From: a virus
Virus record (IMG/VR): IMGVR_UViG_3300025018_000143
Span: 9,576-73,575 of that record
Length of the DNA: 64,000 bases
Direction: 5' to 3' (one strand)
Shown: positions 5,098 to 63,253 of the stretch, one piece after another
Numbering within the stretch: the first letter of the stretch is position 1
How the letters are laid out: every line of letters begins with the position of its first letter
The notes under the pieces: generated by a model
Database searches by the model: none
The model's input: the letters and a program-made list of their open reading frames with translations, nothing else
What the model was told of the DNA's origin: nothing
Made by a program: the position numbers and the translations under genes

Positions 5098-5126
5098 TTG
5101 ACATTCATCCAAATTAATGTTATAAT
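5098..5126 (+). promoter_or_regulatory. sigma70-type early promoter
   Basis: TTGACA-N17-TATAAT. Confidence 0.8.
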
Positions 5127-5802: not shown

Positions 5803-5876
5803 TGGGATATAGTTCAATGGTAGAGCGGATGACTTTGAATCATCAAGTTCCAGTTCGAACCTGGATATCCCTTCCA
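5803..5876 (+). tRNA. tRNA-Gln (anticodon UUG), CCA encoded
   Basis: Acceptor TGGGATA/TATCCCT; D arm GTTC/GAGC; anticodon arm GATGA-CTTTGAA-TCATC; T arm TCCAG-TTCGAAC-CTGGA; ends TCCA. Confidence 0.92.
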
Positions 5877-10238: not shown

Positions 10239-10348
10239 TTGACAACGCCTTTCCTTTGTGTTATAATCTTTATATAAAGAATGAGAGAAGAAAACAAAAA
10301 GAGATGAAAAAAATAATTATTGACAGAACAAATTAAAAATGTTATAAT
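10239..10348 (+). promoter_or_regulatory. two tandem sigma70-type early promoters
   Basis: TTGACA-N17-TATAAT at 10239-10267 and 10320-10348. Confidence 0.85.
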
Positions 10349-11350: not shown

Positions 11351-11943
11351 TGGGTCCTGTTCGGCTATATGAAGTTTTCAATACAATGAAACTTCATTGG
11401 AATACCAATTATGATTTTGTCAGGTATAAAGGAAGGTCAAAGAATTTCAATGCTGAAAACTTGGACAAATCGAATAATAAGCATGTATACTATCAGGTAG
11501 CTAAGAGATACAAGATAGAAAAGGATTTTGTGCTCACAATATTGCCTATATTCCTTGAAAATAACAATACTCAAATATCCGATTTATTGAGCAAAGAAAG
11601 ATGTGAAAAAATATCGATGGAGTGGTACAGAAAAATCCAGACTATGCAAAAGTGGTTTTACGAGGATTGTGAGGTTATCTGCAAATACATCAAAGATAAT
11701 GGCATGAGCTTTCAGCAATTCTTTCTAGGGAATCCAATATTGGATTTTCTTCTTTATGACCACATAAATATAGAGACATTTATTATATTAGACAGGTTCA
11801 TTTTTTTCTTGACAAAGAACAAAAAGAAGAGTATAATATATACTCAAGTATATGAACAGAAAGTGCAAAATTATTCTTCTTTCATACAAGTTGAAACTGA
11901 TAAATATGATAAATTGTTTAAGAAGGCTATGACGAGGAGGTAG
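11350..11943 (+). CDS. gp59: helicase loader gp59
   Basis: MKLHW...YDFVRYKG, INIETFIILD; synteny. Confidence 0.85.
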   Translation: MGPVRLYEVFNTMKLHWNTNYDFVRYKGRSKNFNAENLDKSNNKHVYYQVAKRYKIEKDFVLTILPIFLENNNTQISDLLSKERCEKISMEWYRKIQTMQKWFYEDCEVICKYIKDNGMSFQQFFLGNPILDFLLYDHINIETFIILDRFIFFLTKNKKKSIIYTQVYEQKVQNYSSFIQVETDKYDKLFKKAMTRR

Positions 11944-42890: not shown

Positions 42891-43511
42891 ATGACTATAA
42901 GTCAATATTTTCGACATATAACAGCTTCTAATGAACAGAAACTAGTTAATGATCTTACCATCGAATGCATACAGATGAAAGGTCTTAATATGAAATATGT
43001 TCCTAGAGATTCAACAAATTTAGACAATCTATTTGGAGAAGATAATCAAAGCACATTTACTGCTGCTGTTGAATTAGAAATGTATTTCAATGAGATGACT
43101 GGATTTGGTGGAGAGTCCGATATATTCTCTAGGTTTGGTCTAAACATTAATGATGAAGGAACATTCATCATTTCTTACTCAAGGTTTAAGGATGTTGTTA
43201 CTGCCGCCTATCCTTTAATCAATAGACCAAGAGAAGGTGATTTGATCTACTTTGATTTACCGACCTCTGTATTTGAGATTGCATGGGTAGAAGATGAAAA
43301 ACCATTTTATCAAAATGGTATATTAACTATCTGGACATGCCATTGTAAGAAATTTGAATACAATCATGATATCATGGAATCAGGTGTTGATAATGTGGAT
43401 GATATTGTTCTTGATCCTGTAAGAACAGCTGATAATGATGATATTCAAACAGAAAGTGATACTTTTGTTAATTTTGATGAAAATGATCCATTCAGCGATA
43501 ACTCTTATTAA
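42891..43511 (+). CDS. gp14: neck protein gp14
   Basis: EQ.L..DL..E.I...G....Y.PR, FGE, RPREGDLIY, FEI..VE...PFYQ. Confidence 0.93.
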   Translation: MTISQYFRHITASNEQKLVNDLTIECIQMKGLNMKYVPRDSTNLDNLFGEDNQSTFTAAVELEMYFNEMTGFGGESDIFSRFGLNINDEGTFIISYSRFKDVVTAAYPLINRPREGDLIYFDLPTSVFEIAWVEDEKPFYQNGILTIWTCHCKKFEYNHDIMESGVDNVDDIVLDPVRTADNDDIQTESDTFVNFDENDPFSDNSY

Positions 43512-43519
43512 GGAACAAT

Positions 43520-44299
43520 ATGGCAATTACAGATTTTTATTCTCATGGGACAATAAGGCGATGTGTAACAGCATTCGCCACATTGTTTAATGGGTATAAA
43601 GTAAGAAAAACAGACGGAACTTTGGTTATGGTTCCGTTGAGATGGTCATCAAAGCAAAAATGGCATACAAAATATCAAGAGGATAATACCGGAGCTCCAA
43701 ATACTTTTGTGTCGATTACATGGCCTAGAATGGGATTCACTATAGCCAATATATCATATAATTTTGAGAGAAAGGTTTCTAGTTTAAATAAAATTTCTGC
43801 TGCAAATACTTTAGATGCAGGGAGTATGCTTAGAACTTATTCAGCGGCTCCATATACAATCGATTTTGATTTGTTTATTGGTACAAGGACTATTGATGAA
43901 GGGTTACAATTGATTGAGCAGATCATTCCTTTCTTTACACCATCGTTTAATATTACGATTTCAGAGCTTGATACTCTAGGATTGGAACGTGATGTGCCTA
44001 TACGATTAAACAGTGTACAACCTAATCTTGATATAGAAGGTATGTTTGATGGTGATGATGTAAAATTATGGGATTTGAGCTTCTCAATGGAAGTCAACCT
44101 ATATAAGAATATTAAGAGTGAAAAAATAATCAAGAAGATAATAGTTGATACTTATCCTTCCACTGATGTGACAGAAGAAACTATTAAATTTAGAACAAAA
44201 TATACTGTTGATCCAGAGACAGCATTTATAACTGATGAGTATTCCATATTAGAAGAAATTGGATATGTGTCATATGATACACCAAAATTACCAGCTTAG
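43520..44299 (+). CDS. gp15: tail sheath stabiliser / terminator gp15
   Basis: IRR.V.AF.TLFN, VPL, PRM.F, Q.IEQI.P.F.P.F, DVPI.L. Confidence 0.92.
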   Translation: MAITDFYSHGTIRRCVTAFATLFNGYKVRKTDGTLVMVPLRWSSKQKWHTKYQEDNTGAPNTFVSITWPRMGFTIANISYNFERKVSSLNKISAANTLDAGSMLRTYSAAPYTIDFDLFIGTRTIDEGLQLIEQIIPFFTPSFNITISELDTLGLERDVPIRLNSVQPNLDIEGMFDGDDVKLWDLSFSMEVNLYKNIKSEKIIKKIIVDTYPSTDVTEETIKFRTKYTVDPETAFITDEYSILEEIGYVSYDTPKLPA

Positions 44300-44312
44300 A
44301 ATGTGATAATAT

Positions 44313-44352
44313 AAAAAGGAAAGAGGAGACAAAAAATCTCCTCTTTCCTTTT
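44313..44352. terminator. bidirectional rho-independent terminator
   Basis: AAAAGGAAAGAGGAGA-loop-TCTCCTCTTTCCTTTT. Confidence 0.85.
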
Positions 44353-44376
44353 GGTTTTATGAGAAGGATCTAATGC

Positions 44377-44672
44377 GAGGACTCTGAAGGAGTCCTCCAG
44401 GTTCGGAGAACCTGCACTCTCAGCCTTCTAAATGTATTAAGAACAAAGCCATAAGGAAATCCTCTTCATGTTTCTATACATGAAGAGGATAATTATGCCT
44501 AAGTACTTTTAATCTGACCATGTACTTAATGTATTATAATAACATAAAAATCATATTTAATTTATTTTTATGCTGTTATAATACATTAAATTCTTAATGT
44601 GTATTAAGATGTCTTAATGCTTCATTCACTCCGTGAATGATGTTCATGATTATGCTCCGCATAATCATTCAC
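44377..44672. repeat. dense array of inverted repeats
   Basis: Stems at 44377-97, 44398-414, 44459-90, 44528-87, 44601-20, 44622-40 and 44646-68. Confidence 0.85.
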
Positions 44673-44699
44673 GCATTTAATTTTTTATTCTTTATATTA

Positions 44700-45421
44700 A
44701 ATTCTTCATTATTATTTACTCAGCCATGGTTTACCCTTTAGCTTGATTTAATTGTTTATAGTAGAGATGAAATCTAAAAAAAGAGGTTATTTTCAGCTAT
44801 ATTTTTTTAGCAAAACACAGCGAGAATCCCTTTGTAGTGTTTAAGTGACACAATACTTTATATTCTCTTCTTTTTTTATTGCCCGTCAGACTGGTCAATT
44901 AGTTTCCTAATTGCATCAAGCGTTCCATTTCCGGAACAAACCAGCTCGATCGGTGGCATCGGAGGTTGAAGCGACCTGTTTCAATGTGTTACAATTTCAG
45001 AACACATATCAGCTGTACCACCATCTCTACATCAACTTAGGCTTTCTACATTCATGGAACTGTACTTTTTGTATTTCTACGTTTTTCTAATCCAGATGAA
45101 TGGAGCGGTTAGAATCTACAGCAAGAGGACTAGCATCTGGGAAGTCAGTATCCACCCATCTGGGCTTAGTTATCTCCAAATCCTCGGAACATATTTGATG
45201 CTAGTCATTATCTGTATAAAGCAGTCTTATTCAAAATATAATTCTAAATCACTCCGCAAGTCACTAAAGTTTTCGTCTGGTCATTACTTGTTAAGATAAA
45301 TATTACCATATGCTTTTTTCAGATATTTATCCAAGCACCAGAGAGAATAACAATTTCAGGCATTCTGTTACCAAATGCTTCCCCTTACTTTTGTTATCCT
45401 GACTACATCTTTTCAATCTAC
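44700..45421 (-). ncRNA. candidate large structured non-coding RNA (boundaries approximate)
   Basis: Late promoter TATAAATA on - at 45427-45434; long-range helices; three GNRA-capped hairpins on the minus strand; no credible ORF. Confidence 0.55.
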
Positions 45422-45445
45422 ATATCTATTTATACAACTCAAAAA

Positions 45446-45682
45446 TTACTTCTTTGTTCTGCTTGCCCTGATATTTGGATTTTCCAAATATTTGTTTAAA
45501 CAAGGGTCACATATTTCAACATGAGTAATATTAAATCTTTTTGTTCCTTCAAGACCAAGAAAAAATACTCTGGCGTACATGCCTTCATACATTTTCCCAC
45601 ATTCACAGCATTTTTTATACCCTAACTTTCTTAATGCTTTTTGTGCTTTGCTTTGTTTTCCAGCATTTCTCGATTGGTTCAT
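45446..45682 (-). CDS. small zinc-finger protein
   Basis: CCEC...CDPC; early island. Confidence 0.65.
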   Translation of the reverse strand: MNQSRNAGKQSKAQKALRKLGYKKCCECGKMYEGMYARVFFLGLEGTKRFNITHVEICDPCLNKYLENPNIRASRTKK

Positions 45683-45699
45683 ATTACCTTCAATATTAA

Positions 45700-45952
45700 T
45701 TATTTTCTGCCTGTAAATTTACACATTTGATTTTCTTCTGTCCATTTAGGACTGATTTCGATAATTTCATCAGGCTTTGACCAATCAATAATTGAATCCA
45801 ATTGGTTTTTGATTGAAGCTGATAAATTCTGAGCTTCAATTTTACCTAATTCAGCATAAGGTCCATATTTCTTATCAAAAGGAGCCTCACCTTTCAATTG
45901 AAATTGAACACTAGGCCTCTTCCAAATCTTTACTTCCCTTGATATAATCATA
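45700..45952 (-). CDS. hypothetical protein
   Basis: Probable start MIISREV after GAGA; early island; start uncertain. Confidence 0.55.
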
Positions 45953-45961
45953 TTTATCTCA

Positions 45962-46195
45962 TTAATTTTTGCATTCCTGAAAAGTCCAATCATAGAAATC
46001 ATCAATTGAACACACTTTCCTTACTGGAATTCTCTCAAATCTGTAAACAGAACAAAGAACTTTATCCAAGCCTAACTCTCTGACTGCTTTCTCTACTCGA
46101 CTTAAGTCATTCATTTCTGGCACATGCATACCACAACAGAAACCAATGATCTTCCAATTTCTGTTTTCATCTTCATAAATGTCAACTGATATCAT
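45962..46195 (-). CDS. hypothetical early protein
   Basis: GAGGAG RBS after two early promoters. Confidence 0.7.
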   Translation of the reverse strand: MISVDIYEDENRNWKIIGFCCGMHVPEMNDLSRVEKAVRELGLDKVLCSVYRFERIPVRKVCSIDDFYDWTFQECKN

Positions 46196-46242
46196 AATTT
46201 TCTCCTCAAGATTTAATTTGTACTCTCATTTTCTTATAGTAT

Positions 46243-46347
46243 ATTATAACATCTAATATATCCTTTGTCAAGTATTTTTTAATTTATTTTTTCTTTTTTC
46301 TTCATTCTTTATATAGAGATTATAACATTAAAAATTCCTGGTGTCAA
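46243..46347 (-). promoter_or_regulatory. two tandem sigma70-type early promoters
   Basis: TTGACA-N17-TATAAT on - at 46271-46243 and 46347-46319. Confidence 0.85.
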
Positions 46348-46375
46348 GTATTTTTCTTGTGTTTTTTTTCATTTT

Positions 46376-46383
46376 TATAAATA
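46376..46383 (+). promoter_or_regulatory. late promoter for the terminase operon
   Basis: TATAAATA. Confidence 0.75.
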
Positions 46384-46414
46384 TATAGAGAATATTTATA
46401 TACAGGAGGATATT

Positions 46415-46801
46415 ATGGAAAACCAAGAATTGTTAATACCTGAATCAATAGGGATGGATGTTGCTAAATATAATGACATCGATCAAGATGCCTTTGATGA
46501 TATTGAAGAGGTACGACAAAATTACAAAACACTTTTAGAAAAGGGTAATGATGCCCTGGACACAGCAGCTTCAATTATTGAATCATCCGAGCATCCACGT
46601 GCTATTGAAGTTTTTTCTGGTTTGATATCAAATCTTGCTAATGTGAACAAGCAATTAATCGAACTTCACAAATCCAAAAAAGAGCTTCGTGAAGCCAGAA
46701 AAATGAATGATGACCAAAGCAACGGGAATAACATTCAAAACAACATGTTCATTGGGTCTCCAAAAGATTTGCTTGATATGCTAATGGCTAATAATGGATA
46801 A
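46415..46801 (+). CDS. gp16: terminase small subunit gp16
   Basis: R.N...L...G..AL, SEHPRA.EV, NN.FIGS..DL. Confidence 0.92.
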   Translation: MENQELLIPESIGMDVAKYNDIDQDAFDDIEEVRQNYKTLLEKGNDALDTAASIIESSEHPRAIEVFSGLISNLANVNKQLIELHKSKKELREARKMNDDQSNGNNIQNNMFIGSPKDLLDMLMANNG

Positions 46802-48488
46802 TGAAGAAAAACAAGCCCATGATAATCAGCAAGAATTATCGGAGATAGGCTACAGAGGGAATAAGAATTTAAGAAAATCCGGGCTTACCCAGAAGTGGAC
46901 AAAGAGACAATTAATTGAATGGAAAAAATGTCATGATGATCCAATATATTTTATTAAAAAATACGTAAAAATTGTTCATATTGATCATGGTATTGTGCCT
47001 TTTGAGTTATGGGATTTTCAAGAAAAATTAATAAATGATCTACATAATAATAGATTTGTTGTGGGATGTTGGAGCCGCCAATCTGGGAAGTCTTCAACCA
47101 TTGCAGCTTATATGCTTCATTATGTATTGTTCAATTCTAATAAAACCTGTGCTATACTTGCGAATAAAGCAGCAGGTGCCAGAGAGATACTTGGAAGAAT
47201 TCAGATGGCTTACGAATTATTGCCATTCTGGATGAAAATGGGCGTAGAAGATTGGAACAAAGGTAATTTCAATCTTGAAAATGGATCAAGTATTATTGCT
47301 TCAGCTACGTCCAGTTCAGCTATACGTGGTTTGTCAATATCATTTCTTCTACTGGATGAGTTTGCTTTCGTACCAAAAAACATAGCTGAGGATTTCTTTA
47401 GGTCAGTATATCCTACAATTTCATCTGGTAAAGAATCTAAAATAGCTGTTATTAGTACACCATATGGCATGAATCATTTTTACAAATTATGGAATGAAGC
47501 ATTAACAGGCGTTAATGGGTATGTATCTAACAGAGCATATTGGCATCAGGTTCCTGGTAGAGATGATGTATGGAAAGCAGAGACAATTAGAAATATTGGG
47601 TTAGAGGCATTTGATCAGGAATTTGCAATTGAATTCCTAGGATCCTCAGGGACTCTTATTTCTTCTGCTAAACTATCAGCAATGTCCTATAGGACACCTA
47701 TATTACAAAATGATGATGGATTCAAGATGTATTATGCTCCTAAACCAGACCATGCTTATATCATGACTGTTGATACTGCTGAAGGCTTAGGATTAGATAG
47801 CCATGCTATTAGTGTGTTTGATGTTACTGAAAAGCCATACCAACAAGTAGCAGTGTATAAGAATGCTTTTCTCGAACCATTATTACTTCCTGATATTTGT
47901 TTGAGTATTGCAATAAAATATAATGAGGCTTTTATAATGGTTGAATTGAATCACTTAGGCCCTCAAGTAGCGAATACATTATATCAGGATCTTGAGTATG
48001 AAAATATGATGTTTACAACTATAGGAGGCAGAAGTGGCCAAGTACTTGGTGGTGGCTTCGCCGGCAAAGCTCAAATTGGTGTTAAATCAACTACTCAATC
48101 AAAGAGAGTATCCTGCTCATTAACAAAAACATTAATTGAAAACGATCAATTAATAATAAATGACTTTGACACATATTCCGAATTTACTACATTTGCTAGA
48201 AATAAAAATTCATATGAGGCAGAGGAAGGAGCTAATGATGACCTTGTAACCACTGTTAGATTGTTTGCATGGATAACAGGTCAGAAATATTTTAAGGAGG
48301 ATTTAGAGCGAGATTTGAGGGATAATCTAAACCGACAATCAATTAATAGAATGGAAGAATTATTAGTTCCATTCGGCATAATTGATAATGGTATAGAAGC
48401 TGATGACATTCACACAAGAGCAGAACAGCATAAATATCAGGTTGATTATACAACCAGATATAGTGATATGTCTAATTTCAATGAATGA
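46794..48488 (+). CDS. gp17: terminase large subunit gp17
   Basis: RQSGKS Walker A, LLDEFAF Walker B, STPYG.NHFY, VD.AEG.G.D, DDLV. Confidence 0.97.
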   Translation: MDNEEKQAHDNQQELSEIGYRGNKNLRKSGLTQKWTKRQLIEWKKCHDDPIYFIKKYVKIVHIDHGIVPFELWDFQEKLINDLHNNRFVVGCWSRQSGKSSTIAAYMLHYVLFNSNKTCAILANKAAGAREILGRIQMAYELLPFWMKMGVEDWNKGNFNLENGSSIIASATSSSAIRGLSISFLLLDEFAFVPKNIAEDFFRSVYPTISSGKESKIAVISTPYGMNHFYKLWNEALTGVNGYVSNRAYWHQVPGRDDVWKAETIRNIGLEAFDQEFAIEFLGSSGTLISSAKLSAMSYRTPILQNDDGFKMYYAPKPDHAYIMTVDTAEGLGLDSHAISVFDVTEKPYQQVAVYKNAFLEPLLLPDICLSIAIKYNEAFIMVELNHLGPQVANTLYQDLEYENMMFTTIGGRSGQVLGGGFAGKAQIGVKSTTQSKRVSCSLTKTLIENDQLIINDFDTYSEFTTFARNKNSYEAEEGANDDLVTTVRLFAWITGQKYFKEDLERDLRDNLNRQSINRMEELLVPFGIIDNGIEADDIHTRAEQHKYQVDYTTRYSDMSNFNE

Positions 48489-58753: not shown

Positions 58754-58782
58754 TTGACAATATAATCCTTATGTGTTATAAT
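58754..58782 (+). promoter_or_regulatory. sigma70-type promoter
   Basis: TTGACA-N17-TATAAT. Confidence 0.8.
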
Positions 58783-61468: not shown

Positions 61469-61560
61469 GGCTTTTTTTCCTAGAGCCAAAATTTCACTTG
61501 ACAAAGCCTCTAAATATGTTATAATGTATTAATACTGATAAAATATTACAAGGAGCATAT

Positions 61561-62564: not shown

Positions 62565-63253
62565 ATTTGCAATTGTCAAAATGCCATCTTTTCATTCCAA
62601 ATAAACTGCCTTCTTTATTACAATGAGGGCAGATTATTTTATCTTTGTATTTTAATGAATTTGTTTCTAAACGTTTTTTTGTTGATTCAGGAGAATTTTT
62701 TCTACCTAAAGCTGATATGCGCATTTTCTTTTTAGTTTCTTCAGAAACTATTTTACCCATGTGAGCTATACTTAATTTTTTTATCTCTTCTGGGTCTTTA
62801 AATCTTTGGTAGTTCGCGTTTGATATTTTGTTTCTTGATTCTAATGAATGTTTTTTATTAGTGTTTATTTTTGATAGATGTATAGCTAATTCTGGTCTTT
62901 GTTGATGAGTTAATTTATTTGATTTTGATATTTTTTCTTTGTTTCTTCATTATGTGACATGCCTAATCTAGTGGAGCCGCCAATACCACCTGTACAGGCA
63001 TTATATGTATCTTTGCGATTAATAAAATCAGAATTAACAATTTCTATTTCTTTTTTGAATGCATCATCCTCATTATCAAAAATAAAAAGAATTTTTCTGG
63101 TAAATAATTGTTTTCCATATTTTGTATTGCTTGGTTTAATACTTTGCCTGATCCAAGATAACCATCAAATTCAATACCTTTTTGTTTATGTTTTCCTACA
63201 TAAATTTTATTGTTGACAGTATTAGTAGTTTCGTATATAATATAATTAAACAT
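62542..63253 (-). pseudogene. GIY-YIG (Seg-like) homing endonuclease broken by two frameshifts
   Basis: YIIY.TTN.VN.KIYVGKH...Y.GSG; continues KYGK...YN...GG.GG after a shift near 63120; NUMOD3-like repeats after a shift near 62938; ends CPHC.KEG....MKRWHFDNCK. Late promoter on - at 63280-63287. Confidence 0.85.

Follow-up and report, generated by a model that had tools for sequence, protein, structure and literature searches.

A conserved, ORF-free island between gp15 and gp16 of an uncultured T4-like phage is a candidate for a lineage-restricted non-coding RNA

Why does a T4-like phage carry more than 2 kb of additional DNA between two genes that its distant relatives nearly always keep side by side, and could the part of this DNA that encodes no protein act as an RNA? 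The locus lies in a stretch of 64,000 nucleotides (nt), here called the window, within an IMG/VR virus record of 73.5 kb whose completeness is put at 42%. Its source is an uncultured T4-like phage whose nearest cultured relatives share only about 50% of the residues of its TerL. Pfam and PHROGs place on the plus strand gp14 (42891-43511), the tail gene gp15 (43520-44299), the small terminase gene gp16 (46415-46801) and the large terminase gene gp17 (46794-48488). Distant relatives that were fetched through gp15 and that show both genes almost always have gp15 next to gp16 (or gp17), and the 2.1-kb insert at 44300-46414 is therefore lineage-specific. Read along its minus strand, the insert comprises two promoters, three small ORFs and then 1.15 kb free of ORFs, which divides into two very unlike halves, a hairpin array (array A) and an island of different composition (island B). 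The original prediction, made from the letters of the window, had seen here a candidate for a late-expressed, structured RNA of about 700 nt.

The minus-strand unit opens with two perfect early-type promoters, both TTGACA-N17-TGTTATAAT on the minus strand in a promoter pattern scan; the one at 46319-46347 has 12/12 matches and a TG, and the other lies at 46243-46271. Perfect TTGACA-N16-18-TATAAT sites number nine in the window against 0.21 expected, which identifies them as the early promoter type of this phage. The seven further sites (5098-5126, 10239-10267, 10320-10348, 11809-11837, 58754-58782, 61498-61525 and 63213-63241) mostly contain TGTTATAAT as well, giving a sharply defined early consensus. 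A motif scan also located the late-type motif TATAAATA as a back-to-back pair on opposite strands at 46376-46400, the plus-strand copy (46376-46383) preceding gp16 and the minus-strand copy (46393-46400) pointing into the insert from upstream of the entire minus-strand unit. A further minus-strand copy at 45427-45434, 12 nt past the stop of the third small ORF and directed into island B, is the late promoter that the original prediction had named; the motif is indeed present there, as a single site that is not above chance. In total, TATAAATA occurs 21 times in the window (13.0 expected; 5 of 100 shuffles reach 21). It is probably a working late promoter in this phage, because 6 of its 12 plus-strand copies lie at most 150 nt upstream of an ORF start. 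The label 'late-expressed' describes the unit only in part, as two perfect early-type promoters would drive it first.

The three ORFs that follow these promoters, all on the minus strand, have no family match above cut-off in Pfam or PHROGs. They encode 77 amino acids (aa) behind a GAGGAG ribosome site (45962-46195), 83 aa when read from an ATG (45700-45951; the ORF list gives 45700-46005 from a TTG) and 78 aa (45446-45682). The 78-aa product, encoded directly upstream of island B, is small and basic with two Cys pairs and is zinc-ribbon-like in sequence; a YhfH-like match reaches 18.1 bits, under the cut-off of 27. No relatives of it were found in IMG/VR, the protein collection returns only the protein itself, and the ESM Atlas holds only unnamed small proteins that match it. 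For the 83-aa ORF the ESM Atlas gave no usable matches.

Island B, read on the minus strand, covers at least 44780-45381 (about 44780-45420), limits that are the ends of a contig from a diverged relative described below and hence those of an assembly rather than functional ends. Its GC content of 0.37 over 44780-45381, with a peak of 0.405, exceeds that of ordinary intergenic gaps (about 0.20-0.31), as had been noticed from the letters alone, and compares with 0.342 for coding DNA. Each of the six frames of 44300-45446 contains 14-36 stops, of all three kinds; the minus-strand frames, with 25-36 stops each in about 380 codons, are near random density. None of the 23 stop-to-stop fragments of at least 25 aa from the six frames matches Pfam or PHROGs at E<=0.1, and among 5.8 billion proteins none is related to the longest open stretch, of 109 codons on the plus strand. 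The stretch 44300-45445 is truly non-coding, in agreement with the earlier statement that it holds no credible ORF. The minus strand of B is purine-rich, as are the coding strands of this phage, and the plus strand is T- and C-rich, a composition that by itself lowers the number of stops. Three other ideas about B were dropped: recoding, as reassigning any single stop opens no frame; a template of a diversity-generating system, as the 73.5-kb record contains B just once; and an antisense or sponge RNA, as the top complementary match of B elsewhere in the window spans 14 nt (E = 0.13).

The strongest result on island B comes from metagenomes. Nine public sequencing runs, none of them on record as RNA, contain words of the insert, and a contig comparison over 43000-47400 covers four of these, three from an aquifer and one from wastewater (X4). 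The three aquifer runs contain the same phage, with the listed pieces mostly identical to the window; aquifer contigs without any difference span the border between A and B at 44780, which argues against a chimeric assembly. Run X4, a wastewater metagenome, holds a diverged relative. It differs from the window at 19/270 positions in gp14, 21/182 and 24/214 in two pieces of gp15, 29/190 in the small ORFs, 44/580 from the 77-aa ORF to gp16, and 27/288 and 31/292 in two pieces of gp17. In this one relative and on one contig, island B (44780-45381) differs at 11/602 positions with no gap, that is, 1.8% compared with 195/2016 (9.7%) for the seven flanking pieces pooled (Fisher p = 1.6e-12). Among 12 X4 pieces on 4.4 kb, B alone exceeds 95% identity, and the conserved block coincides with the GC-richer, ORF-free part.

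The genes themselves provide a scale for this difference. The listed part of gp16 has 24 differences, of which 19 fall at third codon positions (19/69 codons) and the other 5 at first and second positions (5/139). Third positions at 19/69 put near-neutral divergence at about 27%, and B would accordingly change about 15 times slower. The divergence of B is not significantly under that of the gp16 first and second positions (5/139; p = 0.20) or that of the promoter spacer at 46196-46414 (7/219; p = 0.28). The share of sampled insert words present in X4 is 0.25, which exceeds what evenly spread differences would leave and gives a rough hint that the 11 changes are clustered. To the left of B, the X4 gp15 contig becomes unlike the window at 44293, and no X4 contig covers 44323-44763 at >=80% likeness; to the right, an X4 contig with a 4-base deletion at 45423 indicates that the region continues. 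On this one comparison, island B appears to be conserved well above the neutral rate, as expected of a functional non-coding element.

The predicted fold of island B is less distinctive than its conservation. Over 44700-45434, folding z-scores are -1.72 for the minus and -1.28 for the plus strand (20 shuffles each), and over 44778-45421 they are -1.64 and -1.79, respectively (100 shuffles, 5% of which fold as well); 150-nt windows within 44750-45450 range from +1.9 to -2.5. The folding energy is therefore borderline relative to shuffles, and both strands of B fold about equally well. Energy no better than that of dinucleotide-shuffled controls had been set beforehand as the outcome that would speak against a structured RNA, and z = -1.64/-1.79 comes close to it, because the observed energy is just borderline better. 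By contrast with the overall energy, two kinds of element exceed chance modestly. GNRA-capped stems of at least 5 bp occur twice on the minus strand, where 0.30 are expected and 2.7% of 300 shuffles have two or more, and not at all on the plus strand; perfect 9-mer inverted repeats number seven against 1.6 expected (2% of shuffles).

Five local domains are predicted on the minus strand, with z-scores that are biased, because the domains were picked after folding, and that are not to count as tests. D1 (45345-45399; z -1.6) is a 9-bp stem (p 0.96) around a GUAA hairpin; D2 (45276-45342; z -2.4) is a long hairpin of 6+5+9 pairs (p 0.93-0.95); the core of D3 (45117-45216; z -3.1) is a 10-bp helix (p 0.98-0.99) that closes a junction with two small hairpins; D4 (44890-44945; z -3.9) is a three-way junction with a 6-bp closing stem and two GAAA-capped hairpins; and D5 (44796-44867; z -3.5) consists of two hairpins. 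A run of seven U (44778-44784) lies 12 nt beyond D5, which is thus not a canonical terminator, and no canonical terminator was found directly after B.

Several of these elements had been pointed out in the original prediction, with mixed outcome. The 10-bp helix of 45128-45137 with 45197-45206 has perfectly complementary arms and a pairing probability of 0.98. The GAAA-capped hairpins at 44896-44913 and 44922-44937 are present, and GNRA stems do occur on the minus strand only; these two 7-bp hairpins share the one predicted three-way junction at 44890-44945. The GUAA hairpin at 45360-45378 needs a bulge and keeps just 4 pairs in the minimum-energy fold. A 9-bp long-range helix (44761-44769 with 45022-45030) likewise has perfectly complementary arms but a pairing probability of 0.13, and it is absent from the minimum-energy fold; one of its arms falls outside the conserved block. 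A 10-mer that occurs at both 44991-45000 and 45350-45359 is a real repeat but one attributable to chance (one repeat where 0.64 are expected; 33% of 300 shuffles contain one or more). Separately, UAUGG (45310-45306) and CCUAAG (45041-45036), both on the minus strand and which we take to be the halves of a tetraloop receptor, were considered as such and dropped, because their flanks are not complementary.

Array A, which adjoins the island, is a different kind of DNA. It packs eight strong hairpins into about 450 nt of AT-rich sequence (44296-44780; GC 0.23-0.30), alike on both strands, and its minimum free energy of -150.2 kcal/mol compares with -87.5 kcal/mol in shuffles (z = -10.7; 0/100 shuffles as good). 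Terminator-like stems occur at four sites in 44200-46500 against 0.9 expected, three of them within array A, namely a GC-containing stem with a T run on both strands at 44314-44352, just after gp15, and one on the minus strand at 44459-44490. The hairpins far exceed the need of a convergent terminator, and their minus-strand loops include two GGA triloops. Array A was not found in the diverged X4 relative. Within it, a palindrome at 44526-44589 has 26-nt arms that are 92% complementary. Each arm has an extended -10-like motif, TGTTATAAT or TGTTATTATAAT, directed outward, on the basis of which the palindrome may serve as an operator or as two promoters placed back to back. In the three aquifer runs, contigs 1-1.8 kb long match 45 nt of this palindrome at 82%.

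Searches for homologues of island B outside these metagenomes returned nothing beyond chance. No homologue was found in phage records with near and distant search modes, or in plasmids with the distant mode. Of three exact patterns from B run against IMG/VR, the sole match is an 18-mer in one other locus (L162) with no similarity beyond it, which we take as chance; one 20-mer gave 0 matches in JGI metagenome contigs, and one 21-mer run against 185,579 species genomes led to 23/24 bases in a contig labelled as an Alphaproteobacteria MAG, with nothing beyond, again taken as chance. The whole insert, run with blastn and nhmmer, matched none of 160 gp15-anchored loci (80 + 80), in which gp15 identity reaches at most 44%. 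The original prediction could not assign the RNA to a known family, and the family models agree. Rfam 15 (4227 models) at gathering score finds in the window only a tRNA at 5803-5873, and at E<=10 only chance-level miRNA and snoRNA rows, the best within B being mir-2944 with 16.8 bits against a gathering score of 56. In the 73.5-kb record, ROOL (RF03087; threshold 99.1 bits) gave 0 matches at E<=10 with 3 candidates scored, although the control genomes gave no match either; GOLLD (RF02032; threshold 150 bits) gave 0 matches at E<=10 with 11 candidates scored, and the best row of group-II-D1D4-1 (RF01998), at E = 0.44, lies elsewhere in the record. ARAGORN detects 0 tRNA or tmRNA genes in 44200-46500, where the Rfam tRNA model has no row. 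In the literature searched on large phage ncRNAs and on T4-like non-coding RNAs we found nothing on an element at the gp15-gp16 position.

How does B compare with known RNAs? Phage T4 makes the stable RNAs C and D (species 1 and 2), which are non-coding and of unknown function; they come from an early or middle transcription unit, are about 120-140 nt long and are situated within the tRNA cluster. The putative transcript of B would likewise be non-coding and belong to such a unit in a T4-type phage, whereas B is about 600 nt long, away from tRNAs and inside the late structural module. ROOL and GOLLD are closer in size. PMC12286853 describes both as large phage or prophage RNAs, often near tRNA islands, with folds backed by covariation; it gives the function of both as unknown, states that ROOL has no known protein partner, and reports that GOLLD is often >800 nt and that its expression rises during lysis. 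With ROOL, whose model has 574 positions, B shares its length of 602-644 nt, its phage carrier and the possession of several GNRA-capped hairpins. ROOL, however, is often found near tRNA islands (PMC12286853), whereas B has no tRNA within 44200-46500, and the fold of ROOL is backed by covariation, whereas that of B is a prediction from one sequence. With GOLLD, B shares a preceding late-type promoter motif, but it lacks a model match and a tRNA neighbourhood, and it is known here from sequence alone. The likeness of island B to ROOL and GOLLD is confined to size and carrier. Published ncRNA screens look in AT-rich genomes for intergenic regions that are long and GC-rich (PMC8632094 and PMC11109978). 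By that criterion B has the profile of a candidate, as an unusually long gap with a GC content over that of other spacers in an AT-rich genome; such screens, in contrast, confirm their candidates by covariation among many homologues, whereas B has one known homologue.

The simplest account of island B is a functional non-coding element, because the island is non-coding and GC-richer and has been kept about as closely as constrained positions of core proteins while the ORFs of the operon drift and array A is replaced. That this element would be an RNA read from the minus strand is suggested by the minus-strand promoters, the terminators downstream, the purine skew and the GNRA loops. Overall, we put at roughly 0.45 the probability that B is a new, lineage-restricted non-coding RNA of the minus strand. 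The possibly undescribed large RNA of the original prediction has its lack of coding capacity, a conserved core and minus-strand promoters and GNRA loops in its favour, with borderline folding against it. Non-coding stretches longer than a few hundred bases are rare in tailed phages.

We infer the transcription of B, its strand and ends, its partner and its function along the following lines. The insertion between gp15 and gp16 would be a small early transcription unit with island B as its 3' portion, in which the sigma-70-type promoters at 46347-46319 and 46271-46243 would drive the three small ORFs and then B. It might also be transcribed on its own from TATAAATA at 45434-45427. Transcripts would continue into array A and terminate at its stems of 44490-44459 or 44352-44314, and these two stems would also shield the RNA 3' end. 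The RNA would carry local domains, among them the three-way junction with twin GAAA loops and the 10-bp helix closing a junction. As its overall fold is not unusually stable, it would be expected to act by sequence-specific contacts, whether these are tertiary contacts or those of a scaffold or protein-binding RNA. A possible partner is the basic, zinc-ribbon-like 78-aa protein encoded just upstream. A bolder version, which we consider doubtful, is that B represents a new class of large phage RNA of about 0.65 kb, as tightly conserved as a housekeeping RNA, transcribed early as well as late from within the structural module, acting as a scaffold that is protein-free or bound by a zinc-ribbon protein, and similar in kind to ROOL and GOLLD though unrelated to them in sequence and setting.

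The main rival holds that B has no function and is spacer DNA exchanged recently between lineages, which would have had less time to diverge; a recent exchange gives the same count of differences. T4-like genomes are mosaics, the insert is lineage-specific and the folding of B is not above chance, all of which agree with such an exchange, as does the replacement of the DNA left of B in the relative (unlike from 44293; no X4 contig on 44323-44763), which places breakpoints next to B. The exchanged patch would nevertheless have to match exactly the ORF-free, GC-richer stretch while sparing the small ORFs of the same unit (29/190), no other piece among the 12 from X4 exceeds 95% identity, and 0.6 kb of useless DNA kept without an indel in two lineages would be unusual for a phage. 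We regard this explanation as unlikely, yet as one to be taken seriously. Fainter still is the case for a cis element that acts, and is conserved, as double-stranded DNA, such as an origin of replication, a region bound by protein or a site related to packaging, of which array A would be a part. In its favour are the equal folding of the two strands, the AT-rich and palindromic character of array A next to strong promoters and the nearby terminase genes. At known origins and pac sites, however, it is short motifs that are constrained rather than 600 contiguous bases at 98%; B contains no iterons or repeat families, three ORFs on the opposite strand separate it from gp16, and the more origin-like half, array A, has not been retained in the relative. 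The role in packaging that the original prediction had floated finds no support beyond the position near the terminase genes.

Two further readings would derive B from protein-coding DNA. A remnant of an accessory or homing-endonuclease gene would account for the purine-rich minus strand, which resembles the coding strands of the phage, and for an insert at a site where accessory cassettes come and go. Against this, the 25-36 stops per minus-strand frame of about 380 codons are near random, 0/23 fragments match any family, and a remnant should diverge faster than its neighbours, whereas B diverges about five times more slowly; we think a decayed gene very unlikely. Least credible of all, and hardly worth entertaining, is that the 81-aa plus-strand ORF at 45054-45299, or another small ORF, is real and explains the conservation. 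For this ORF speak its place in the longest open stretch (109 codons between stops) and its hydrophobic translation, but no ribosome site, family or relatives were found for it and it is not called as a protein in the collection. The conserved block extends past this ORF by 274 nt on the upstream side and 82 nt on the downstream side, and whereas the differences in real genes of this locus are mostly at third codon positions, B scarcely changes.

If B is a non-coding RNA, it would found a new family, so far with two lineages, and would widen the class of ROOL and GOLLD by a third large RNA, unrelated to these two and carried by a T4-type phage. Its defined transcription unit and candidate protein partner would make it a tractable system for studying how large phage RNAs function. 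If B is instead an exchanged patch, the locus is ordinary, and a long, ORF-free, GC-richer gap with a few hairpins would be insufficient to call an RNA.

The locus offers some minor observations besides. Two AT-rich stretches at 44681-44718 and 46360-46382 are matched by several unrelated aquifer contigs that then diverge, with loose ends and depth peaks; they may be regulatory motifs common to co-occurring phages, or low-complexity matches. The X4 relative is without 80 bases at 46026-46107, inside the 77-aa ORF, from which it follows that the small ORFs of the insert change fast, unlike island B. An identical 78-aa protein is recorded on two contigs, the longer of which has 144,072 bases, and a more complete genome of this phage is therefore present in public assemblies.
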